Source of the DNA: a virus
Lineage: Duplodnaviria; Heunggongvirae; Uroviricota; Caudoviricetes
DNA: 64,000 nt
Reading direction: 5' to 3' (one strand)
IMG/VR virus record: IMGVR_UViG_2667527592_000002
Translations under genes and position numbers: made by a program
Notes under the pieces: model-generated
The model's input: the letters and a program-made list of their open reading frames with translations, nothing else
The model's database searches: none
Told to the model about the DNA's origin: nothing
Part shown: positions 1-61,950 of the stretch, one piece after another
Position numbering within the stretch: position 1 is the stretch's first letter
How the letters are laid out: each line of letters opens with the position of its first letter

Positions 1-2
1 GC

Positions 3-146
3 TTTGTCATGCTTCCTGAGCTGAAATACGCAATTTCAGACACTTTAAGCACTATCGTTACTTTTGTGTTTTATCTTTACTTTGATTACTTATTGAGCAC
101 TAAAATCAATGAATTATCCGAGGAAATGCAAGGTGGCTGTAAGTGA
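3..146 (+). CDS. 3' fragment of hypothetical membrane protein (start outside window)
   Basis: Frame open from window edge to TGA 144-146; hydrophobic translation; stop overlaps next ATG (TGATG). Confidence 0.25.
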   Translation, partial: FVMLPELKYAISDTLSTIVTFVFYLYFDYLLSTKINELSEEMQGGCK

Positions 147-274
147 TGGATTTTTGGGCGTTTGCCGATAAGAACCCTGGTTGGACATTTTTATTTTTGC
201 TGGTGGTTGCATATGGGGTCGAGCAAGCGGCTAAAGCCTTACGCGGTTCTGGCAAAAAGCGTAAGCGGAATTAA
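146..274 (+). CDS. small hypothetical protein, 42 aa
   Basis: ATG 146 to TAA 272-274; hydrophobic core and basic tail (GKKRKRN); below ORF-track size cutoff. Confidence 0.3.
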   Translation: MDFWAFADKNPGWTFLFLLVVAYGVEQAAKALRGSGKKRKRN

Positions 275-37587: not shown

Positions 37588-38485
37588 ATCTCTAGTAAGC
37601 ACAGCCATAGAAAGACATGATTCGATGGCGGAAATTAGCTATATGCGCACCATTCGGACTCCGGATGAATACGAGCGTCCGATCTTCAAATGGGTAGGCG
37701 GTAAATTTTCAGAGTTGCCTATAGTGCTTGAGCATCTACCACACGGTAAGCGGTTAATAGAACCATTCGTTGGTGGCGGTTCCGTATTTACGAATGCAGG
37801 ATTTCGCCACAACCTGCTTAATGATATTAACGGTGACTTGATTAACTTCTATCAGACATTGCAGCGAGAAAGACATTCTCTAGTCACGCTGTCATATAGT
37901 TTTTTCCAAAATTACAACAACGCTGACGCTTACCTCGAAGTGCGTGAGGCATTTAACAGAGGAAAGTATGACCAACTACATCATGCTGCTGCCTTTTTGT
38001 ACCTTAATCGGCACTGTTTTAATGGCGTAACACGGTACAACCAAAATGGCGAGTTCAACGTAGGGTATGGTAAATACAAAGCGCCCTACTTCCCACATGC
38101 AGAGATGGAGGCATTTTTGGCTGATGACGTACTCAAAAACACTTCCTTTGTATCAGGTGACTTTGCTGGCGTCATCGAGGCGGCTGGTGAAGGCGATGTG
38201 ATTTTTTGCGATCCGCCGTATGAACCGCTGCCGGATACAGAAGGGTTTACCAGTTATTCAGGAAATAGCTTCCGTTTCGACGAACAGAAACGGCTGGTAT
38301 CTCTATTGGTGGAAGCCCACCAGCGCGGCGCTAAGGTAGTGATTACAAATAGTGGTGCTCCAAACATCCGTGAACTATATGAAGGAAACGGGTTTAAAGT
38401 ACATCATATGGCAGCCAGACGGTCGGTTTCCTGCAAGGCGTCAACACGTGTAGTTGCTAACGATATAATTGCAATAATGAAGTAA
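37580..38485 (+). CDS. Dam-family DNA adenine methyltransferase
   Basis: KWVGGK, EPFVGGGSVF and DPPY motifs; start overlaps upstream stop. Confidence 0.85.
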   Translation: MSKSLVSTAIERHDSMAEISYMRTIRTPDEYERPIFKWVGGKFSELPIVLEHLPHGKRLIEPFVGGGSVFTNAGFRHNLLNDINGDLINFYQTLQRERHSLVTLSYSFFQNYNNADAYLEVREAFNRGKYDQLHHAAAFLYLNRHCFNGVTRYNQNGEFNVGYGKYKAPYFPHAEMEAFLADDVLKNTSFVSGDFAGVIEAAGEGDVIFCDPPYEPLPDTEGFTSYSGNSFRFDEQKRLVSLLVEAHQRGAKVVITNSGAPNIRELYEGNGFKVHHMAARRSVSCKASTRVVANDIIAIMK

Positions 38486-38486
38486 A

Positions 38487-38516
38487 AAACGCCGCAGTAG
38501 CGGCGTTTACTTTTTC
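38487..38516. terminator. bidirectional rho-independent terminator between dam-like and glnS
   Basis: AAACGCCGC-AGTA-GCGGCGTTT with T-runs on both strands. Confidence 0.6.
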
Positions 38517-38533
38517 ATGTGGCGAAATACCTA

Positions 38534-40195
38534 TTAACCTAACTTCGCCCAGGTATCACGCAGCCCAACGGTGCGGTTAAATACCGGTTTTTCCGCCGTA
38601 GAATGGCGGCTGTCGAGGCAGAAATAACCTTCACGCTCAAACTGGAATGCTTTACCCGCTACCGCTTCTTTCAGCGACGGTTCAGCAAAGCCTTGTTTGA
38701 TCACCAGCGATTCCGGGTTAATCACCGACAGGAAATCATCCGCAGCACCTGGGTTCGGTACACTGAACAGACGGTCGTACAGGCGAATTTCAACCGGCAG
38801 CGCATGTGCCGCGCTCACCCAGTGAATAACGCCTTTCACTTTACGACCATCTGCCGGATCTTTGCTTAAGGTGTCGGCGTCATAAGTACAGAAGATGGTG
38901 GTGATATTGCCTTCGGCATCTTTCTCCACGCGTTCAGCCTTAATGACGTAAGCATTACGCAGACGCACTTCTTTACCCAGCACCAGACGTTTGTACTGCT
39001 TGTTAGCTTCTTCGCGGAAATCGGCGCGGTCGATCCAAATCTCACCGCTAAACGGCACCTGACGGCTACCCATTTCCGGTTTGTTTGGATGGTTCGGCAT
39101 GGTGACCATTTCGCCTTCGCCCTGGTAGTTTTCGATAACCAGTTTCACCGGATCGATAACCGCCATTGCGCGCGGGGCATTTTCGTTGAGATCTTCACGG
39201 ATGCAGGATTCCAGCGACGCCATCTCAATGGTGTTGTCCTGCTTGGTCACGCCGATGCGTTTGCAGAACTCACGAATAGAAGCCGCAGTGTAACCACGAC
39301 GACGCAGACCGGAAATGGTCGGCATACGCGGGTCATCCCAGCCTTCAACGTGCTTGTCGGTCACCAGCAGGTTCAGCTTACGCTTGGACATCACGGTGTA
39401 TTCCAGATTCAGGCGCGAGAATTCGTACTGGCGCGGGTGAACAGGAATGGTGATGTTGTCCAGTACCCAGTCATACAGACGACGGTTGTCCTGGAACTCA
39501 AGCGTACACAGAGAGTGCGTAATACCTTCCAGCGCATCGCTGATGCAGTGGGTGAAGTCGTACATCGGGTAGATGCACCACTTGTTGCCAGTCTGGTGGT
39601 GTTCAGCAAACTTAATACGGTACAGCACCGGGTCGCGCATCACGATAAACGGCGAAGCCATGTCGATTTTCGCACGCAGGCAGGCTTTACCTTCTTCAAA
39701 ACCACCGGCACGCATTTTTTCGAACAGCGCCAGGTTCTCTTCAACGCTGCGGTCGCGGTACGGGCTGTTTTTACCCGGCTGCGTCAGGGTGCCGCGGTAT
39801 TCGCGGATCTGTTCCGGCGTCAGTTCGTCAACATACGCCAGGCCTTTGTTGATCAGTTCAACAGCATAGGCATGGAGTTTGTCAAAATAATCGGAGGAGT
39901 AACGGATGTTGCCAGACCAGTGAAAACCTAACCATTCAACGTCGTTTTTAATCGACTCAACGTACTCGATATCTTCTTTTACCGGGTTAGTGTCGTCGAA
40001 ACGCAGGTTGCACTGGCCTTTATAGTCCTGGGCGATCCCGAAGTTCAGGCAGATAGATTTCGCATGACCAATATGCAGATAGCCATTCGGTTCCGGCGGG
40101 AAACGGGTATGTACTGTGGTGTGCTTACCACTGGCCAGATCTTCATCGATGATCTGACGAATAAAGTTAGTCGGGCGGGCTTCTGCCTCACTCAT
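38534..40195 (-). CDS. glnS: glutaminyl-tRNA synthetase
   Basis: 553 aa; near-identical to E. coli GlnRS from memory ([17 protein letters not shown]...; HIGH in YLHIGHAKS; MSK in VMSKRKL). Confidence 0.95.
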
Positions 40196-45920: not shown

Positions 45921-46047
45921 TTAAATCACATAACAACATGCGTGTTAATAGATTTTATTTTACTAAACCTATTGACTAAATCACAAAGTAGGTATTGTTA
46001 GCCCGTCAAAAGAACCTTCACGCCGCGCCCGAATTTAGGGCTTAACC

Positions 46048-47745
46048 GTGAATAAAAACATTCAGCCAGCTCGTGATCGCGAGCGCGAGATTATGAATCG
46101 GGCGGCAAGCGTCATGGCTATGACCGTCGATCCGACCACCGATGCAGCAGGCAACATGATTGCTGACCAGGCAGTAATGATGGAAAACCTGGATAAAGCA
46201 ATCCAGAAAGTGCCTATGTTTGAAGGCGTAAATCCAGAGGTCGCTCGTCAGATCACTGGTGGGTGGGCTATGTCTCTGCATGAGTATAAACGTCAACATG
46301 GTCATTACCCGGCAAGTGACATCCTGGCGAACGCACACATGGCTCTTGAACGCCTGATGACTGAATGTGCCAGTGATACCCATGAAGGCACGGGTAAGGC
46401 AATGTTTGAGTCTGTCGCGCAATCAATGCGTAGCTCTGACGGCGTAATGAAAGTTGCTCAATATGCTGCTCTAATTCTGCCTGCCTCTCTGGGCGCTGCT
46501 ACCAGTGATGCCTGTACTTTTGTTCCTTGTGATCGTGACGAGTCAAATATTTATGAACTGGTCAACGTAGCAGGCACAAAATTCGGCACCTTCAAACAAG
46601 GTGACGAACTGAATATGCAGTCAGCTGGTGTTTATTCTCAAATGAAGCGCCTGTATACCCTTTCCACTAAAGGGGATGGCAGCACCAAAACCTTCCAGTT
46701 CGACATCCAAAATTTTGAGGGACAATCCTGCCCGCTTCGCGCTGGTTATAACAAACTGCTGATCAACCGCAAACCGTCCAAAGTTGACGACGGCGATGGC
46801 AACCTTTATTTCAATGCTAAAGACAGCAAAGGCAATGCTTTCTCAGCGACTGCCAAAGTTGCCTATGACACTGGTGTCATTGACATTACATTTACCCAGG
46901 CTCCGCCAGAAGGTACTGAAATTGCTGTTCAGGTCGAAATTAACATCGAGCGCAATCCAAGCCTGATTCCTGTGATCAACCAGGCTATGCGTAAGTACGA
47001 AGTTCGTCCGTCCCAGTACGTAATTGCTTCCGAACACACGGTAATGTCCGCATCCGATTTAAGCCGTGAGCACGGCCTTGAATTAGCGGCACTTCAGTTC
47101 TCCGCGATGCGTAACTGGATCTCCCATGAAACCGACATCATGCGTCTGCGCACCCTGGTATTCCATACCGTTTATGGTCGTGAATTTGATGTGGCTCTGC
47201 CGGAAGCTCAAAACTATGAGTCCTGGGTCGGCCTCCTGCGTCACGTAGTAAACGCTCTGTCTCAAGAAATGGCAAATCGTACCCTGACAACGGGTATTCG
47301 TGGCGGCTTTGCTGGTGGTGACGCCGCGAACTTCCTGCGCTCTCTGCCTCCACAGCACTTCCAGATCGCACCAGGTTACGTTCAGTCGCCGTATGTACAG
47401 TACATCGGCACCCTGTTTGGCACGATTCGTATTTACGAAGTGCCGCAACCTGTCTGTGAGCAATTCCAGGCACAGGGATATGACTTCGGGCTGGATGACA
47501 TCTTCTTCTATGGGCGTGGCGAAGGCATCGGTAAAGCCGGTCTGATTGCTGGTGATGCAGTCCCTGCAATCCCTTACGTGCATGAAACCAATCCGTCTCT
47601 CGTTAACCGTACCACTCTCTGGGGCAGTGCCATCAACGAAGTACATCCTCGCAACGGTGAAAACTACTTCACCCGCCTGCGTCTGACTCGTGCCAAAGAA
47701 GGCGCTATCGACATGCTGTCAGGCAAGGTTAACGAAAAAAAGTGA
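46048..47745 (+). CDS. putative major head (capsid) protein
   Basis: 565 aa; first large ORF of virion block, followed by Ig-like ORF; by size and position only; GTG start uncertain. Confidence 0.4.
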   Translation: MNKNIQPARDREREIMNRAASVMAMTVDPTTDAAGNMIADQAVMMENLDKAIQKVPMFEGVNPEVARQITGGWAMSLHEYKRQHGHYPASDILANAHMALERLMTECASDTHEGTGKAMFESVAQSMRSSDGVMKVAQYAALILPASLGAATSDACTFVPCDRDESNIYELVNVAGTKFGTFKQGDELNMQSAGVYSQMKRLYTLSTKGDGSTKTFQFDIQNFEGQSCPLRAGYNKLLINRKPSKVDDGDGNLYFNAKDSKGNAFSATAKVAYDTGVIDITFTQAPPEGTEIAVQVEINIERNPSLIPVINQAMRKYEVRPSQYVIASEHTVMSASDLSREHGLELAALQFSAMRNWISHETDIMRLRTLVFHTVYGREFDVALPEAQNYESWVGLLRHVVNALSQEMANRTLTTGIRGGFAGGDAANFLRSLPPQHFQIAPGYVQSPYVQYIGTLFGTIRIYEVPQPVCEQFQAQGYDFGLDDIFFYGRGEGIGKAGLIAGDAVPAIPYVHETNPSLVNRTTLWGSAINEVHPRNGENYFTRLRLTRAKEGAIDMLSGKVNEKK

Positions 47746-47892: not shown

Positions 47893-48171
47893 ATGGCAAA
47901 CATTCAAGTAACTATCTCGCCATCTGACGCAACAGACAAATCTTTCACTGTTGAGTCCGATCACCCTGAAATTGTCCAGGTTGATGGCACTACATGTACC
48001 GCTCTTAAGGCCGGGCAGGCAGTGCTGACAATCAAAACCAATGACGGCAATAAAACCGCACAGTGCACAGTCACTGTTAGGGAGGCACCTAAAAGCGTAA
48101 GCGCCGTCAGTGTTGAACCAACTACGAAAGAAGTAACCGTAGGCGACAACTTCACGGTAAGCGAATCCTGA
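47893..48171 (+). CDS. bacterial Ig-like (Big_2-type) domain protein
   Basis: 92 aa; TISPSDAT ... VTVREAPKSVSAVSV pattern. Confidence 0.5.
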   Translation: MANIQVTISPSDATDKSFTVESDHPEIVQVDGTTCTALKAGQAVLTIKTNDGNKTAQCTVTVREAPKSVSAVSVEPTTKEVTVGDNFTVSES

Positions 48172-48238: not shown

Positions 48239-49897
48239 ATGAATAAGATTAGTTTTTCGGTAGGGCAGGCAGCTGGCGTTGCTGTAATGTCAGTAAATGC
48301 TGACGCTACCCTCACCAATACCAGCGGTGGCGCTTCCGTCTTTGCTGGGCTTGTAATATCGCGTCGTGGCGCACCGGGTAAGGTACTGAAAGTTGACGAT
48401 ACGACTTATCAAAGCGTATTAGGTTCACCGATTCACCCTCGCCTGGGCGCGGCATTTGAACCATACCGCCACGTGGAGCGTGCAGTAAAAGGCGGTTCTG
48501 GATATGTCGTTCGAGTTTGCGCTAAAGACATGAAGGTACCGGGTATTTCTGTTTCCGTTGTGGGCAGAGCAAAAGCGGCAAAGGCGAGTAAAGAACTTTC
48601 CGTTGAACCAACTGAAACCACAGTAAATCCAGGTGACACATTAAGCGTTGGTGTTGCTTCAACAGCAACGACTCAATCAGTGGTCTTCACACCAAAAGAG
48701 ACGCCTCAGATAAAAGGTGATGAGAAAGCATTATTCTTCATCAAAGATGGTGATGCATCTCAAAATCGCACGTTATCACTAACCCGCGATAATGAAGAAA
48801 GCGAACTCTTTACGCTGACGCTGAAAGAAAAACAAACTGATGGGTCCATTGAGGTACTGGAAAGCCACCAGGTGTCCTTCAATCCAGAAGGCACTAACGA
48901 CATGGGCCAACCTGCATGGATTCCGACACTGCTTGAAAGCCAGTCCACTCGCATTGGTGCCGTGCTGGCAGATGATGCAGAAGCATCTGCTGCTCAACTC
49001 ATTTTTGAGGATGTAGCTTTTGAAGGTGGTACTGATGGCGATCTGTCCACAATTAACACTGAAGACTATCTGGAAGCATTAAAGGTTCTCGAAGCTTCAG
49101 AGGTTAATTACACCGCATTGCTGTCACTGGGTTGTTATGACGCATCCGCCTTAGCCGCAATCAAAAAGCTGGCTGAAGATGTTCGCGTAGACATGTTCTA
49201 TGACCTGAAGGGTAACCAGACACCTGAAAACGCTATTTCAGAAGCGAAAAGCCATAGTTTTGGCGGCTCACATCAACCAAGCCGTTACTACTTCCCGCTT
49301 TCCTGCCGAGATACCTTCACTGGGATGAATGTCGTCTATGGCATTAGTTGCGACGCATTCGTAGCGAAAGCAAAAGGAGTTGCGCTGGTACCGGATGTTG
49401 GTGGTTGGCATTACGCACCCGCAGGTATATCACGCGCGATTATTGATCGACAGAACATTGCCCGAATTCCAAATATCGGTGCGGTTGATCGTGAAGCGTT
49501 CGTTCTTGCGCGCATTAATCCAGTTTCAGTTGCTGCTGACGGGTCCGTTTACATTGACGACTCTTTAACAACTTACAGCAAAAACAACTATCTGCGATTC
49601 CAGCATGTGTCTTCCTTGATGAACGCCATCGCCAGAAATTTCTATGACGTAGCTCAGGCGATTAAGCACGAACCGGATGGCATTACCAAAGAAACGCTCA
49701 TGAAAGCAATGACTGAATTGCTTGACCGTTACGTTGCAGCCGGTGCGCTGGTTACTCCACGTGACAAATCCCAGGGCGAAGATCCATATGTTGTTCAGGT
49801 TGTCCAAAAGGACATCGATCTGTGGGAAGTGTCCTGGTCTGTTTGTCCGACCGGTACAGCTCGCCGAATCGTCGGTAAGCCAATTCTGATGCGCTGA
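48239..49897 (+). CDS. putative tail sheath protein
   Basis: 552 aa; AGAGG RBS; by size and position in a contractile-tail gene set only. Confidence 0.4.
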   Translation: MNKISFSVGQAAGVAVMSVNADATLTNTSGGASVFAGLVISRRGAPGKVLKVDDTTYQSVLGSPIHPRLGAAFEPYRHVERAVKGGSGYVVRVCAKDMKVPGISVSVVGRAKAAKASKELSVEPTETTVNPGDTLSVGVASTATTQSVVFTPKETPQIKGDEKALFFIKDGDASQNRTLSLTRDNEESELFTLTLKEKQTDGSIEVLESHQVSFNPEGTNDMGQPAWIPTLLESQSTRIGAVLADDAEASAAQLIFEDVAFEGGTDGDLSTINTEDYLEALKVLEASEVNYTALLSLGCYDASALAAIKKLAEDVRVDMFYDLKGNQTPENAISEAKSHSFGGSHQPSRYYFPLSCRDTFTGMNVVYGISCDAFVAKAKGVALVPDVGGWHYAPAGISRAIIDRQNIARIPNIGAVDREAFVLARINPVSVAADGSVYIDDSLTTYSKNNYLRFQHVSSLMNAIARNFYDVAQAIKHEPDGITKETLMKAMTELLDRYVAAGALVTPRDKSQGEDPYVVQVVQKDIDLWEVSWSVCPTGTARRIVGKPILMR

Positions 49898-49941
49898 TTT
49901 ATAACCCCCCGCTAAATGATGCGGGGGAAAGAGGTTTGAAT

Positions 49942-50676
49942 ATGAAAAATTATACTGCTGATCCTTTTATGCGTGCGATTTTCGGTTCTGGCTGCTTTGA
50001 AAGCGGTGATAAATCCACGCAGGACAATAATGATAACGCCATGCTGGAAAGCGCAGGACAGAAAGGGAAGGACACTCAACCAAAGCCCAAAGACGACATT
50101 GAAACCGCAATGATGGAAGCGGTTGAATCCCGTGCACAAGGTGATATGCGCAGCCTGGCAGCTTCCATGCTTGCTGGTTGGGTTGAAGATGGTGATCCGG
50201 AGGCTGACTCATTTGATGCATTAGCAATCACTATGGCTGGTCTGGCTGATATCGATGAAGACACCGATTTCACCGATGAGCAAATCGATGCTTATAACGA
50301 TGCTCTCGCAGCTCTTGCTGATGCAGCTGTTGCGCTTGGCGCTGATCAGGACGATGTAACCGAAATGATCGACGATGAAGATGACTCAGCTGCCGAACGT
50401 GTTTATGACGCTCTTTCCGAAAGCGACACCGACATGATGGAAACAGCTATTGCCATTTACACCGTTGCTGGTGGTGATAGCGCAATGCTGGAAGCGGTAC
50501 GTAAAAAAGTGGTTCGTGATGGCAAGGTTACCATCATCCGTAAACGCCCGCGTCCTCGCCGCATGACGTCATTGCAAAAACAGGCGCTGAAAAAAGCACG
50601 CCGCAAAGCACATACATCCGTAGCGAATATCAACCGCAAAAAATCAATGCGCATTCGCAAAAAACGCGGTTTGTAA
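49942..50676 (+). CDS. highly acidic protein with strongly basic C-terminal tail
   Basis: ATG 49942 after GAGG; long D/E-rich segment then RKRPRPRR...RKKSMRIRKKRGL. Confidence 0.5.
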   Translation: MKNYTADPFMRAIFGSGCFESGDKSTQDNNDNAMLESAGQKGKDTQPKPKDDIETAMMEAVESRAQGDMRSLAASMLAGWVEDGDPEADSFDALAITMAGLADIDEDTDFTDEQIDAYNDALAALADAAVALGADQDDVTEMIDDEDDSAAERVYDALSESDTDMMETAIAIYTVAGGDSAMLEAVRKKVVRDGKVTIIRKRPRPRRMTSLQKQALKKARRKAHTSVANINRKKSMRIRKKRGL

Positions 50677-50725: not shown

Positions 50726-51316
50726 TTGATTTGCGGCGCGATAATGCCTGACGGAATAAGTCCGTTAATGAAGGTTTATATCCTCTCTTCAGAGGATATG
50801 GTCGTCGGTTATATCGGTGAAGGATCTACCGCAGAACTGTCATCAATGTGGCAATCACCATTTGAAAACCAGTCAGTAGGAGGTTTGCTTGGCGGTATTA
50901 GCGCTGCGGCTGGCTCTCTTGCAGATACGCTTCAGACCGCAACCGGCGTAACAACAAAAACCCTCTTCAACTCAATGCTTGTTTGGGAAGGTCAGCAACC
51001 GCCTGAATTTAATCTGGTAATTGATTTCATGGCGACAACGAACGCGCAACTTGAAGTGAACGCAGCCATTACAGCATTGCTGAAGATGGAATCGCCGGAA
51101 CTGAACAATGTAGCGCCATTCGGTCGTCGCCCTGAGACAGTAACGTTAAACATAGGTAGGAACATAGCCCTTACCGACGTTGTTATCAAAAGCGTGAGTT
51201 ACCAACTGGACGCCCCACGCACACCGGAAGGCTATTTCACTCATAACACGGTAACCCTGCAATGCAGCGGAAACACCTCGATTAACCGTAGCAACATATC
51301 ATCTGTTTTTGTGTAG
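50726..51316 (+). CDS. hypothetical virion protein (196 aa)
   Basis: ORF track; start uncertain. Confidence 0.4.
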   Translation: MICGAIMPDGISPLMKVYILSSEDMVVGYIGEGSTAELSSMWQSPFENQSVGGLLGGISAAAGSLADTLQTATGVTTKTLFNSMLVWEGQQPPEFNLVIDFMATTNAQLEVNAAITALLKMESPELNNVAPFGRRPETVTLNIGRNIALTDVVIKSVSYQLDAPRTPEGYFTHNTVTLQCSGNTSINRSNISSVFV

Positions 51317-51324
51317 GAGTATTT

Positions 51325-51816
51325 ATGTCCGGTTTTGCAAATACAAAAGCCGATATCGCTTTTCTGAAATCCCGGTTGAACAAAAACCTGGCAGCGGGCG
51401 AAAAACTTATTGGTTCAGAATTCTGGATGACTATTAAAGGTTACGAAAAACTATCTGTACTTGTTCGTACCACTCAGTTGCCGGAAATGACACGCGAAGA
51501 CGTGGAAGACTATGGTCCTGGCGGCATGAAGATCAACCAGCACGGGCCATTGCGTAACTCAGGTGAATTCCAGGTCACCTGCTCTGAAACCATCGAAGGG
51601 GATGTTCTGGCAGCCGTAAAACAAATGGTATATGGCAAAGAATATCTGGAAATTACCTTACAGGCAGCGGCTGAATCCAATAGCGGTAACCATAAAGGTC
51701 TGATCCGCACATATTATCACTGCAAAGTGTATTCCGACGCAGTGGACTTCTCCACCGAAGACGTAACAGCAGTCGTTAAGCCTTCCCTGCGTATTGTTTA
51801 CAACTGGGTAGAGTGA
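51325..51816 (+). CDS. putative tail tube protein
   Basis: 163 aa; size and position only. Confidence 0.4.
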   Translation: MSGFANTKADIAFLKSRLNKNLAAGEKLIGSEFWMTIKGYEKLSVLVRTTQLPEMTREDVEDYGPGGMKINQHGPLRNSGEFQVTCSETIEGDVLAAVKQMVYGKEYLEITLQAAAESNSGNHKGLIRTYYHCKVYSDAVDFSTEDVTAVVKPSLRIVYNWVE

Positions 51817-53233: not shown

Positions 53234-53528
53234 TGAGGGCATTTTTTACATCATCAATCCATCTGTAATGAAGGCATTCTTTACACATTTCAATAATATC
53301 AATCAGTTAACACCGTGAATGATAATGAAAAAGCACAATAAGAATGCCAGAAACACACGATATTGGTTGAGGGCAATTTTTACATAAACCTTAAATATCA
53401 ATAGGTTATATAAAAACACAACTTGCTAATAACAAGATACATGCAATTAAGATGTAAAAATTGCCCTCAATTGCCGATCGTTAAGGGCAAATTCTACACC
53501 TTGAGAGGGGTGTAAAAATTGCCCTTAA
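53234..53528. repeat. incA-like iteron array downstream of repA (about 6 copies, both orientations)
   Basis: 19-bp units TGAGGGCA(A/T)TTTTTACA(T/C)C at about 53234, 53270, 53367, 53451(rev), 53482, 53509(rev); last overlaps repA stop. Confidence 0.6.
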
Positions 53529-54280
53529 GACTGCTGATAGGTAAATTTTATCCTGGTAACTTTGCCGCCTTCCGTCACCTCTGAGAAGACTATTTTCATT
53601 TTTGTATTTTTTTCAATCTCTGCTACAGCCTTCGTTAAAAAACTTCTCTTAAATTCGGCATACCGCTGATAGCTTTTTGGTAACCCATAACGCTCCCGCA
53701 TCCATTCGACGCCAAGTATGGCAAAGCCGCTTCCATCATCCTTCCTGTACTGGCATAAGGACTCATAAAGCCGCATAGAATAAGGATTTGTAAGGCGAGA
53801 CACTTCGGTAAAATTCAGCCTTGTGAATCTCTTATCAAGCAGAGTAAAAAACGGCATGAGATATGGATTAAGATGAATAATGTAAGTCCCGCGCCGTGGT
53901 GAATAGGCATCCTTAATCATCCAAGGATAAGACTCATAACTATCTTCTGATTCGGTCGATTCATCAGGGTTATATATCGTAACTTTCTTCTCGCTAAGCC
54001 CTGAAATGGCCTTACGAATATCCTTGCTGGCTTCAGCAGAGGGCAAATTATACATCTCTGCATATTCGTTGACCGTCAACTCACAGGCACCTGAACCAAG
54101 AACGCCATCCTTAGAAGCATAGCGAAGTCTTCCCACCACAATAAACAACAGTCGCTTTTGGTCGCGAGTCAGGTGATAAGCAGCCTCCGTGATCTCATTG
54201 GCTTGTGCCAAACTACGACTAATAGGTGTCGCTGACTCAATCAGGCTGACGGCTTTTGCTGTTAATTCCGCTCTGTTCAT
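53525..54280 (-). CDS. repA: iteron-binding replication initiator RepA (Rep_3 family)
   Basis: C-terminal MRERYGLPKSYQRYAEFKRSFLTKAVAEIEKNT ... KVTRIKF typical of Rep_3 initiators; flanked by iterons; ATG 54280. Confidence 0.85.
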   Translation of the reverse strand: MNRAELTAKAVSLIESATPISRSLAQANEITEAAYHLTRDQKRLLFIVVGRLRYASKDGVLGSGACELTVNEYAEMYNLPSAEASKDIRKAISGLSEKKVTIYNPDESTESEDSYESYPWMIKDAYSPRRGTYIIHLNPYLMPFFTLLDKRFTRLNFTEVSRLTNPYSMRLYESLCQYRKDDGSGFAILGVEWMRERYGLPKSYQRYAEFKRSFLTKAVAEIEKNTKMKIVFSEVTEGGKVTRIKFTYQQS

Positions 54281-54304
54281 AACCCTGTGTGATCCTTCAA
54301 ATGG

Positions 54305-54421
54305 TGAGGGCAATTTTTACATCACTTTGAGGGCAATTACTACACCTTTTGAGGGCAAATCTTACACCTTTTGAGGGCAAATCTTACACCGATCGTATTT
54401 AATTGAGGGCAAATCTTACAC
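54305..54421. repeat. oriR-like iteron array: five direct 19-bp iterons
   Basis: TGAGGGCAA(T/A)T(T/A)(T/C)TACA(T/C)C at 54305, 54327, 54349, 54371 (22-bp register), 54403; inverted copy at 54545-54564. Confidence 0.7.
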
Positions 54422-59667: not shown

Positions 59668-61094
59668 CGATTACAGAATTACTGGACAAATTTAACGCCA
59701 AGTTAAATGAAAACACATGGTGGTCACGATTTGTAAATAGTCAGTTTGTGCAGATGCACGCGATATTCGGATCACAGCTTATTTATATTGCCCGTACATT
59801 TGCAAGCCGCGGCCTCACTGAGGGACTTATTTCAACGGCTACGCGCCGCTCAAGTATTTTAGCGGTTGCTGAAGACCGTAGCTACGTAGGGCGATTTGTT
59901 AGTGCTTCATACGGAACAACGTCTATAACCAATAAAACTGATCGGGATATTACGTTACCAGCCGGGGCTGAATTGCTTGCCAATGACCAAACACCTTTGG
60001 CAATTATTAACAGTGTTGTAATTCCTGCTGGAGGAACTGTTTCTGGCGTAGAAACTAAACAGCATGAAGCTGTTAGCGTTACATTTGATATTGAGAAGGA
60101 AACTTTATTTCTGACATTGTTGCTTTCCAGAGAGTTAACAAAAGAAGTCTCTAGCCTGGATGTTTATGTTATTACAGATGGCGTAGAAGAAAAATGGACA
60201 TATAACCCATTATTTAGAATGTCCAGAGACAAGAGTAAGCACTATTCATTGGCATATAAACCTACAGAACAACTTGGAGTCAAGTTTGGTGATGGTTCTA
60301 TGGGTATGATGCCTCCAGCAGGCTGTCAGGTTCGAATCGATGTTATGGCTAGCCTTGGCGACTATACTTTGGCTGAAGGACAAAAGTTAGAACCGGCTGG
60401 AAATATCGCTCAATATGTGGAGTCACTAGAGTTTAAAACTGATTCGATCATTACCGGTGGTAGTGGTATGGAAACTACAGAAGAAACTCGAAATCGTGCT
60501 CAGTATTATGTTGCATACGATGAACAAGTGGTATGGGGCGGTGATTATCGCCAATTCATTCAGAATGTTGTTCATGGAACTTCATGGTTGAACGTTTGGG
60601 GCGAAGCGTTACAAGAGAAAATAACTGGGTTTGACGTTCGAAACATCAACAAGATTTTCTTTTGCGGACATAAGCCAGGTGTAAGCCAGGCTCAGCTAAA
60701 ATCAGAAATACTGAAAGCTCTAGAGAATGTTCCAAATGAGTTGAACAAGCGGTTTGAGTATGTAGATACAAATGAACAACCATTTACTATAAAATTTACA
60801 GGTATTGCACGTAAAAATGTTCTGATAGACGACGCTCAAAATGCTATTAAAGCAGCGTTGGAAGATAATTTTGGTCGTGATTCGTCATCATTCAGTTTAT
60901 TACTACAGAGTGATGATGATTCTCAGCAATGTTATGCACAGGTAAAAGTTAAAGATATTTGGCGAGTAATAGAGTCGCTGGATATGTTTCTCTCTTATGA
61001 CATAACAATACAAAATATGAAAGATGCAGTTTACTTTAATGACTTCATTTATCTTGACGTGAAATCTTCAACGTTCAGTATTTCTTACCCGTAA
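59664..61094 (+). CDS. putative baseplate protein (gpJ-like by position)
   Basis: 476 aa; ATGA overlap. Confidence 0.45.
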   Translation: MTITELLDKFNAKLNENTWWSRFVNSQFVQMHAIFGSQLIYIARTFASRGLTEGLISTATRRSSILAVAEDRSYVGRFVSASYGTTSITNKTDRDITLPAGAELLANDQTPLAIINSVVIPAGGTVSGVETKQHEAVSVTFDIEKETLFLTLLLSRELTKEVSSLDVYVITDGVEEKWTYNPLFRMSRDKSKHYSLAYKPTEQLGVKFGDGSMGMMPPAGCQVRIDVMASLGDYTLAEGQKLEPAGNIAQYVESLEFKTDSIITGGSGMETTEETRNRAQYYVAYDEQVVWGGDYRQFIQNVVHGTSWLNVWGEALQEKITGFDVRNINKIFFCGHKPGVSQAQLKSEILKALENVPNELNKRFEYVDTNEQPFTIKFTGIARKNVLIDDAQNAIKAALEDNFGRDSSSFSLLLQSDDDSQQCYAQVKVKDIWRVIESLDMFLSYDITIQNMKDAVYFNDFIYLDVKSSTFSISYP

Positions 61095-61104
61095 TGAGGT
61101 TAGC

Positions 61105-61950
61105 ATGAAAGATAATTGGCTTAAGGAACGATTAACTAAAGTAAAACAGGATTCACATCTCTGGAGTGCATTTATAGACGCTTTACAGGATGTCTGGAAT
61201 GAGGCAGTAGAACCAATATTAACAAGAATAAGTAACAGAAAATCCTTCTTCACTATGGACAGTGAGGATATGGATGCCCGCATTGCTGAATACGGGCGTT
61301 TTTTCGTTATCACTGAAAAAGATAAGGCTCGTAGGCCAATGCTGCTGGCACAACGTTTAGATGAAGTGCACTTTAAAGGCACTATCTTGCCAATTGAGCA
61401 GACATTCTGGCGTGAATTCGGTTGTATTCCTGTTAGTTGGGAACCGCTGTATGCACCTGTAAATATAGAAAAACACCCCTATGGTTCATATTTTGCGACC
61501 GAAATAGAAATACCTACGGCACAGGCTCAATTCGGTGAGTTCTTCCTGACATCAAGGGGGCTGGTCGTTGTTGATCAGAACAAGCTATATCGCTCATATG
61601 GAGAGCAGGATAAAGAAGCCGCTGTACAGAAATTGTTATCTGACTTCGAAACAGTAATAGCCCCTTTATTGCCATTGCATATTGTTTTTGATGGCGTCTC
61701 GTTTCGGCTTAGTGCTGTATTCCCTGAAGTGGCAGAAATACTAAATTGCTTGTCTACGGATGTTTCGGTAATTGAAGGTGTTTATGTTACTGAGAGTATG
61801 GCTGATATGCTATCCCGTAGTGATACCTCCTGCCAGGTAGACAATATTTCTCTTAACGCCATACCGAACCGAACGGCAGAAAAGCAATTACATCTTGATG
61901 TAACCCCACTCGATGCGTGGCCTTTGGATTACCACCTTCAACCTGTTTAA
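61105..61950 (+). CDS. putative baseplate/tail protein
   Basis: 281 aa; ORF track. Confidence 0.45.
   Translation: MKDNWLKERLTKVKQDSHLWSAFIDALQDVWNEAVEPILTRISNRKSFFTMDSEDMDARIAEYGRFFVITEKDKARRPMLLAQRLDEVHFKGTILPIEQTFWREFGCIPVSWEPLYAPVNIEKHPYGSYFATEIEIPTAQAQFGEFFLTSRGLVVVDQNKLYRSYGEQDKEAAVQKLLSDFETVIAPLLPLHIVFDGVSFRLSAVFPEVAEILNCLSTDVSVIEGVYVTESMADMLSRSDTSCQVDNISLNAIPNRTAEKQLHLDVTPLDAWPLDYHLQPV

Follow-up and report, generated by a model that had tools for sequence, protein, structure and literature searches.

A phage gene labelled as tail tube or baseplate probably encodes an acid-base prohead protein cut by the head-maturation protease of P1-like phages

What does a strongly acidic protein with a polybasic tail do when its gene lies within a block of tail genes? 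This question is raised by a 244-residue product encoded in a 64,000-nucleotide stretch of tailed-phage DNA (IMG/VR record IMGVR_UViG_2667527592_000002, Caudoviricetes; the whole stretch is referred to here as the window), which is the homologue of the gene 21 product (gp21) of phage P1. Databases label this family 'baseplate or tail tube', 'putative baseplate protein' or 'tail tube protein'. The analysis presented here indicates that the protein is probably not a baseplate or tail-tube protein, and that it is likely to be a component of the prohead, located inside the head and acting as a substrate of the head-maturation protease Pro, a reading drawn from patterns in the sequences. The gene family is known but misannotated, and its function has hitherto gone unrecognised in the accessible literature, where a search found neither a prior head role for gp21 nor a cleavage consensus. 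P1 is a classic model phage, and this reading would re-assign one of its 'baseplate or tail tube' genes to the head.

Between positions 46000 and 53200 the window shows 97.8% nucleotide identity to the phage-plasmid D6, and the protein is 100% identical to D6 orf47 (YP_009914724), with 41-44% identity to gp21 of P1 and P7. It matches phrog_1053 over residues 1-244 (E = 3.4e-85), a family whose function is listed as unknown, and its ATG is preceded by an AAAGAGG ribosome-binding site ~8 nt upstream. The first-pass annotation of this DNA had singled the product out for its extreme acidic region and polybasic C-terminus, as well as for its position between sheath-like and tube-like genes, and both descriptions proved accurate. 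Residues 61-190 contain 27% D/E and carry a net charge of -29, residues 191-244 contain 41% K/R and carry a net charge of +21, both RKRPRPRR and RKKSMRIRKKRGL are present, and the pI of the whole protein is 4.7. The phrog_1036 sheath gene lies upstream, and a PmgG-like gene followed by the tube-like bplB homologue lies downstream. A chance low-complexity or composition-only open reading frame (ORF) was ruled out by the shuffle test described below and by sequence-specific conservation; W80, G133, E36, E184, R192, G194, K201 and Q212 are invariant in the family alignment.

The evidence for a role in the head starts from three conserved islands of the form A-M-[LFM]-E↓[SA] (the arrow marks a mapped or predicted cut), whose conservation was read from alignments of 30 and then 78 family sequences. 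In their local context these islands read NAMLE↓S, TAMME↓A and SAMLE↓A (Table 1, sites 1 to 3). The maturation cut of the P1 capsid protein, gp23, has been mapped by Edman sequencing to E120↓S121, within NKAMLE↓SVAA (Gonzales 2022), and the capsid protein of the window carries KAMFE↓SVAQ at the aligned position. Because the islands match this mapped site, the gp21-like protein can be described as holding three copies of the capsid maturation-site signature. The corresponding motifs of P1 gp21 are looser, namely LME↓S, ILE↓A and MLTE↓A.

The distribution of the motif is narrow. Scans covered six-frame ORFs of at least 80 amino acids (aa), amounting to 33,913 aa in the window and 48,515 aa in the complete D6 genome. 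In the window the strict motif has four occurrences, one in the capsid protein and three in the gp21-like protein, and in D6 it has eight, which are confined to four genes: the capsid gene (one), the gene 21 homologue (three), the darA homologue (one) and the pro homologue (three). A relaxed-motif scan of P1 returned gp23, pro twice and one antisense ORF. No tail gene carries the motif in the window scan or in relatives from Xenorhabdus and Plesiomonas, where, within 20 kb, the only matches are the capsid protein and the gp21 homologue. Three motifs appeared in none of 200,000 shuffles of the protein (Poisson P ~7e-9). When a broader motif is applied to P1 proteins, site density per 100 aa is 2.1 in Pro, 1.9 in gp21, 0.5 in gp23 and 0.3 in DarA, and 0 in DarB, Hdf, Ulx and DdrA; all gp23 sites lie in the N-terminal 120 residues that are removed, and both DarA sites lie in the removed N-terminus. 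These patterns define a maturation protease signature for the P1 family, [A]-M-[LFM]-E↓[SA], variants of which, with D, S or A, are found in particular lineages.

The variants make it possible to follow the capsid and gp21-like sites together. This comparison used 140 IMG/VR loci in which gp21-like and capsid ORFs were located by hidden Markov models (HMMs), both genes being found in 124 loci, and it paired the capsid column of P1 E120 with the gp21-like column of E184, at the acid/base junction. Some lineages have Asp at this junction ([LF]D↓A[VT]YKK) and likewise at their N-terminal sites. The capsid/gp21-like combination is D/D in 70 of the 124 loci (53 of 97 non-redundant pairs) and E/E in 44 (34 pairs), with a single D/E case in each set and no E/D case in either. 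Two further loci, each also contributing one non-redundant pair, show the same non-acidic residue in both proteins: A/A in L105 (LMLA↓) and S/S in L094 (MLLS↓). These sequences hint that the maturation proteases of L105 and L094 have an unusual specificity, with a non-acidic residue before the cut.

On a neighbour-joining capsid tree of the 90 non-redundant pairs in which both proteins show E, D, S or A, the two characters change at least six times each and 89 of the 90 tips agree, and this tree-based count rules out a single clade split as the source of the E/D pattern. Within one close sublineage, MLE↓S capsids go with MMLE↓A junctions, and MLD↓S capsids go with MMMD↓A. In D-type phages, Pro homologues have one to five Asp-type sites and in most cases lack Glu-type ones, opposite to what is seen in Pro of P1 and D6. 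The portal, which served as a control, does not have the E/D site pattern of Pro. In T4, replacement of Glu by Asp at the P1 residue of a cleavage site (the position before the cut) blocks processing. Because the identity of this residue matters in T4, the concerted switches point to a shared protease with changed specificity, and gp21-like proteins, being predicted substrates of the head-maturation protease, would be sited inside the prohead. A packaged internal or scaffold protein had been one of the first-pass suggestions, and the prohead location that it implies is supported by the three capsid-type motifs and by their covariation with the capsid and protease sites.

The same signature yields exact predictions for other proteins of the system. 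In DarA, a site is predicted at E65↓S66 of D6 (AMFE↓S), aligned with E68↓A69 of P1 (LLE↓A), and a second conserved site is found further upstream (IFE↓A at E39 in D6, MTE↓S at E42 in P1). DarA residues 1-69 are absent from the P1 structure determined by cryo-electron microscopy (cryo-EM), a ~9 kDa fragment being removed by Pro (PMC12810830), and the predicted E68↓A69 site agrees with the start of density at residue 70. Edman sequencing of the DarA N-terminus gave no clear result (Gonzales 2022). Pro of P1 and D6 contains four to seven Glu-type cleavage motifs, which in D6 all fall in the C-terminal half (residues ~170-295); this arrangement suggests self-processing and possibly a protease-scaffold fusion. 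The P1 protease has been reported to resemble HK97 gp4 rather than T4 gp21 (Gonzales 2022). In phrog_1801 and in its RefSeq product name Pro is called 'tail fiber protein', which is wrong. In addition to predicting exact DarA and Pro processing sites, the analysis corrects two labels that are propagating, 'tail tube protein' for the gp21 family and 'tail fiber protein' for Pro.

The structure predicted by AlphaFold2 (AF2) has a mean predicted local distance difference test score (pLDDT) of 75.8. In this model sites 1 and 3 fall in low-pLDDT linkers, and site 2 lies at the N-terminal end of a predicted helix. A Foldseek comparison of the model with viral models matched only the homologue from Bacillus phage SP-15. 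No Pfam family was matched by the protein, DarA_N and DarA_C included, whereas these two families do match D6 DarA and Hdf, and no homology was found to the P1 Dar system components tested (DarA, DarB, Hdf, DdrA, DdrB and Ulx). A profile search of the Protein Data Bank (PDB) with the family gave only a spurious PKS13 match (E = 0.32); the PDB copy used contains P1 PmgG (9ay5, 9vzk) and Gp23 (9ukm, 9vl4) chains, which were found by search.

From these elements a maturation pathway can be proposed. An acid-base pro-protein, self-neutralised, would assemble together with the capsid shell, on its inside, which is where the capsid protein and DarA are also trimmed by Pro. Cuts by Pro after E36, E59 and E184 would remove an N-terminal propeptide and part a folded acidic helical domain of 13 kDa from a polybasic hairpin-plus-helix peptide of 7 kDa. 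The acidic domain may serve as a core- or scaffold-like filler that is expelled by the incoming DNA, as with T4 core proteins, and the basic peptide may be retained on the DNA within the head or on the inner face of the capsid, as an 'internal peptide' that acts as a counter-ion or in condensation. The first-pass idea that a basic tail could tether the protein to DNA is compatible with this scheme, given the predicted cut at the acid/base junction. The N-terminal segment and its sites might in addition serve for loading cargo into P1 heads, as has been done with the DarB signal.

Several features of this scheme have counterparts in T4. In that phage the core proteins are processed into a number of fragments, most of which leave the head, and the proteins that remain there have an N-terminal targeting propeptide removed. 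The T4 core and internal proteins (gp22, gp67, gp68, IPI-III and Alt, with gp21 as the protease) have in common with the major capsid protein a short motif ending in Glu (L/I-X-E). The gp21-like protein resembles them in its capsid-shared motifs, its N-terminal segment ending in a site and its acidic helical body. By this analogy, multi-site cleavage together with an acidic helical body suggests a core or scaffold-like role, and the N-terminal segment resembles a capsid-targeting propeptide. Unlike the T4 proteins, with which it has no detectable sequence or fold homology, the gp21-like protein fuses acidic and basic functions in one polypeptide with a site between them, and its gene lies in a capsid-sheath-tube operon and not beside the protease. 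The known Pro substrates, DarA and the N-terminal propeptide of gp23, come from the same phage family and share the motif. DarA resides inside the head, where the gp21-like protein would be placed as well. It differs in having one or two N-terminal sites, in staying capsid-bound as a large protein, in containing the DarA_N and DarA_C domains, and in having been detected by mass spectrometry (MS) and cryo-EM, gp21 having been detected by neither.

Scaffolds of the P22 gp8 type are helical and bind coat protein electrostatically through a basic C-terminal element, and the gp21-like protein is likewise helical with a basic C-terminal element. The P22 scaffold is uncleaved and recycled, whereas the gp21-like protein has predicted cut sites and no homology to it, and the coat-binding helix-turn-helix of P22 is much less basic than the tail of the gp21-like protein (+24 over 60 aa). 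What is proposed to happen to residues 185-244 finds its closest parallel in adenovirus pVII and pX (Mu), small basic DNA-condensing peptides that are freed from precursors by the maturation protease inside the particle. Adenovirus is a eukaryotic virus whose protease and sequences are unrelated to the system considered here, in which retention of the basic fragment on DNA is a proposal. The latest proteomic and structural studies of P1 state that no separate scaffold or core protein has been identified (Gonzales 2022; PMC12810830), and because the P1 literature names no such protein, the gp21-like protein is a candidate for the P1 scaffold. An unassigned mass of low-resolution density has been described beside DarA and DNA in P1 heads (PMC12810830). 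A retained gp21 fragment is one candidate for this density, and other Dar proteins are equally possible.

A number of observations weigh against placing the protein in the head. Walker and Walker, in 1983, are said to have classed P1 gene 21 amber mutants as baseplate/tube defective. Apart from gene 21, the operon downstream of the capsid gene consists of tail genes. The cleavage motif is short, one locus (L140) is discordant in the covariation analysis, site 2 is located within a predicted helix, and Pro is a predicted protease. The P1 virion proteome comprises 23 proteins, among them the products of both flanking genes and not gp21 (Gonzales 2022), and this failure to detect gp21 with LC-MS/MS argues weakly against a retained fragment. 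The negative result is weak because gp21 offers few detectable tryptic peptides: the P1 protein gives five peptides of 7-30 aa, three of which span predicted cuts, and the basic fragment is reduced to pieces of at most 7 aa, which may be why trypsin-based proteomics missed it. The supplement of that study does not mention gp21 (Gonzales 2022). The P1 cryo-EM models of capsid, portal-adaptor-stopper neck, tube initiator, tail and baseplate contain no gp21, which is not mentioned with them either (PMC12810830), and this absence counts in favour of the prohead reading. Its absence from virion MS and cryo-EM is compatible with removal on maturation, but gp21 is poorly detectable.

The most direct alternative follows the existing labels and regards the protein as a minor structural component of the tail or baseplate or as a factor in their assembly, such as a chaperone that tube or baseplate formation needs; the motifs would then have no bearing on its role. 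The GenBank notes for P1 and D6 ('baseplate or tail tube' and 'putative baseplate protein') favour it, the conserved order sheath-21-pmgG-bplB fits a tail factor, and a chaperone would account for the lack of gp21 in the virion proteome. It is nevertheless unlikely, since the protein is not among the modelled baseplate, tube-initiator, neck and capsid chains of P1, its predicted fold of helices and one hairpin, with neither a beta-sandwich of the tail-tube type (T4 gp19-like) nor a match to tube-protein profiles, is unlike tube or baseplate folds, the motif occurs in no other tail gene, and a tail factor would have no reason to undergo at least six switches that covary with capsid and protease sites. 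The note 'baseplate or tail tube' itself originates in the classical amber classing of gene 21, and the tail phenotype could be explained by polarity on pmgG and bplB, or by classical '21' mutations lying in these two genes, which were never given classical gene numbers. Polarity can account for it because no late promoter is annotated between gene 23 and bplB, the single annotated late promoter of the P1 gene block being upstream of gene 23, and because deletion of pmgG abolishes P1 tails (Gonzales 2022). In the window, no plus-strand promoter or terminator signals were found between the capsid gene and tub. PmgG is the tube-linking protein at the baseplate-tube junction in P1 cryo-EM (PMC12810830), and the tail phenotype classically ascribed to 'gene 21' may in truth stem from pmgG. 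The more specific role of tape-measure tail assembly chaperone was rejected, as the P1 authors propose PmgB for it and the gp21-like gene has no frameshift architecture.

Two other explanations accept a location in or near the head. The protein could be an injected anti-restriction effector, its acidic domain acting as a DNA mimic that is packaged and ejected with the DNA, as the first-pass annotation had envisaged when it mentioned DNA mimics that block restriction enzymes. Known mimics such as T7 Ocr and ArdA have a very high negative charge density, as does this acidic domain, and the charge of the acidic fragment (-32 over 125 aa) falls within their range; the proposed head-internal location would be a prerequisite for injection, P1 and D6 package anti-restriction Dar proteins, and DarA-like genes lie ~8 kb downstream in many related loci. 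Fold, distribution and pattern of conservation all argue in the opposite direction and make this role very unlikely: the gene belongs to the syntenic core of a phage lineage that is very broad and is not patchily distributed like an accessory gene, its family also occurs in Bacillus phages beside a T4-type prohead protease, and the anti-restriction Dar genes known from D6 map to another part of its genome, beyond the window. Unlike Ocr and ArdA, the protein has a conserved basic module and protease-type sites, and its predicted fold is similar to that of no known mimic; the blocking of restriction enzymes thus gains no positive support. It is also highly improbable that the protein is a head-completion, neck-associated or DNA-end-binding protein whose basic module binds the last-packaged DNA or the portal and whose motif serves for docking. 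The portal-adaptor-stopper complex of P1 has been modelled without it, the motif of the capsid protein is a proven cleavage site, and the coordinated E/D/S/A switching in the capsid protein, Pro and the gp21-like protein is most simply read as the specificity of one protease.

The prohead-substrate reading gains wider interest from the breadth of the family. A profile search of a database of 1.8 billion representatives returned 491 clusters at 50% identity, 267 of them with E ≤1e-10, and nearly all members are 215-260 aa long and share the same architecture, with a median body charge of -29 and a median of +20 over the last 55 residues. The most divergent homologue (locus L009) has four strict sites, and its gene follows the terminase genes. 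Distant phrog_1053 members occur in the Bacillus phages HSE3 and SP-15, which are large myophages. In these members an acidic run precedes a hairpin-plus-basic-helix module flanked on both sides by L-x-E sites, which would excise a basic peptide, and the module is followed by an extra acidic C-terminal domain of ~90 aa. The HSE3 gene lies in a protease-capsid-neck head module beside a Peptidase_S77 (T4 gp21-type) prohead protease. This position, like that of the L009 gene, counts in favour of a head location. A 408-aa protein from the representative search (P0193) has two tandem hairpin-plus-basic-helix modules after a long acidic region, which is consistent with the basic module being a functional unit.

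Tentatively, P1-like phages and a much larger group of myophages, spanning at least 491 protein clusters and extending to Bacillus phages that have T4-type proteases, might share an overlooked class of head-maturation substrate, an acid-base pro-protein that leaves a histone-like peptide of ~60 residues on the DNA and whose acidic domain is an expellable core or scaffold. Such a class would be a phage counterpart of adenovirus pVII/Mu, and in P1 it could represent the 'missing' scaffold or core component, or part of the unassigned head density. In this large conserved family, the basic peptide could have a bearing on how DNA is condensed, how densely it is packaged or how it is ejected.

Table 1. 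Position of the gp21-like gene, its predicted sites, segments and cleavage products, and of the other genes considered. Residue numbers refer to the protein encoded by the feature concerned.
Feature	Record	Nucleotides	Strand	Residues	Remarks
gp21-like gene (P1 gene 21 homologue, phrog_1053)	window	49942..50676	+	1-244	intact from ATG to stop, 244 aa
Site 1, AMLE↓S	window	50038..50052	+	33-37	E36 in 78/78 family members; flanks variable
Site 2, AMME↓A	window	50107..50121	+	56-60	E59 in 73/78; start of first long helix
Site 3, AMLE↓A	window	50482..50496	+	181-185	acid/base junction; E184 in 78/78; low-confidence linker
Predicted N-terminal product	window	49942..50049	+	1-36	4.0 kDa; poorly conserved, disordered; candidate propeptide or targeting segment
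Predicted spacer product	window			37-59	2.5 kDa, short
Predicted acidic product	window	50119..50493	+	60-184	acidic helical domain, 13.1 kDa, pI 4.05, net charge -32
Predicted basic product	window	50494..50673	+	185-244	beta-hairpin and long basic helix, 7.1 kDa, pI 12, net charge +24; most widely conserved module of the family
AF2 segment	window			1-47	predicted disordered; contains site 1
AF2 segment	window			50-176	predicted helical domain, pLDDT ~90 (residues 70-160); site 2 near N-terminal end
AF2 segment	window			177-186	low-confidence linker; contains site 3
AF2 segment	window			187-200	predicted beta-hairpin
AF2 segment	window			210-241	predicted long basic helix
Major capsid protein gene (gene 23 homologue)	window	46048..47745	+		reference substrate; AMFE↓S at residues 118-122, nt 46399-46413
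Tail sheath gene (gene 22 homologue, phrog_1036)	window	48239..49897	+		upstream neighbour; no cleavage-type motif
GC-rich hairpin	window	49906..49927	+		CCCCCGC, 8-nt loop, GCGGGGG; 7 bp stem; -17.4 kcal/mol, z = -3.2
PmgG homologue	window	50744..51316	+		downstream neighbour; no motif
BplB homologue (tube-like)	window	51325..51816	+		same operon; no motif
darA, D6	L004	28166-30103
darA, P1	L003	27904-29823
pro, D6	L004	22494-23492
pro, P1	L003	19014-20033
Family member of phage HSE3 (gp066)	L091	5452-6381
Family member of phage SP-15 (SP15_037)	L092	5350-6366

The gene order in D6 is 23 (capsid), a small ORF, an Ig-domain protein, 22 (sheath), 21, pmgG, bplB, pmgC, tub, [repA], pmgB and sit. 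In P1, gene 21 is two genes after the capsid gene, and the order sheath-21-pmgG-bplB is kept in P1, D6 and phages of Xenorhabdus, Plesiomonas and Xanthomonas. The GC-rich hairpin listed in Table 1 is located between the sheath stop codon and the ribosome-binding site of the gp21-like gene and is not followed by a T-run; the P1 counterpart of this interval is a 9-nt spacer only. The hairpin may be an element of mRNA stability or processing, or an attenuator that sets the ratio of sheath to downstream expression.

Other differences from P1 are visible in the same region. Between the capsid and sheath genes (47893-48171) the window encodes a 92-aa Big_2 Ig-domain protein (Pfam E = 2e-7; phrog_215, 'structural protein with Ig domain'), which could be a D6-specific decoration of the head or tail; the corresponding interval of P1 is empty of genes, and P1 is said to have no decoration protein. 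A gene for a plasmid RepA-like replication initiator lies on the minus strand between tub and pmgB (53525-54313) and breaks up a series of tail genes that P1 and the relatives from Xenorhabdus and Plesiomonas have without interruption. Further upstream, at ~38400-40100 of the window (59925-61586 of the D6 record), the D6 annotation places a gene for a glutaminyl-tRNA synthetase (GlnS-like), which is unusual for a phage-plasmid of this size.

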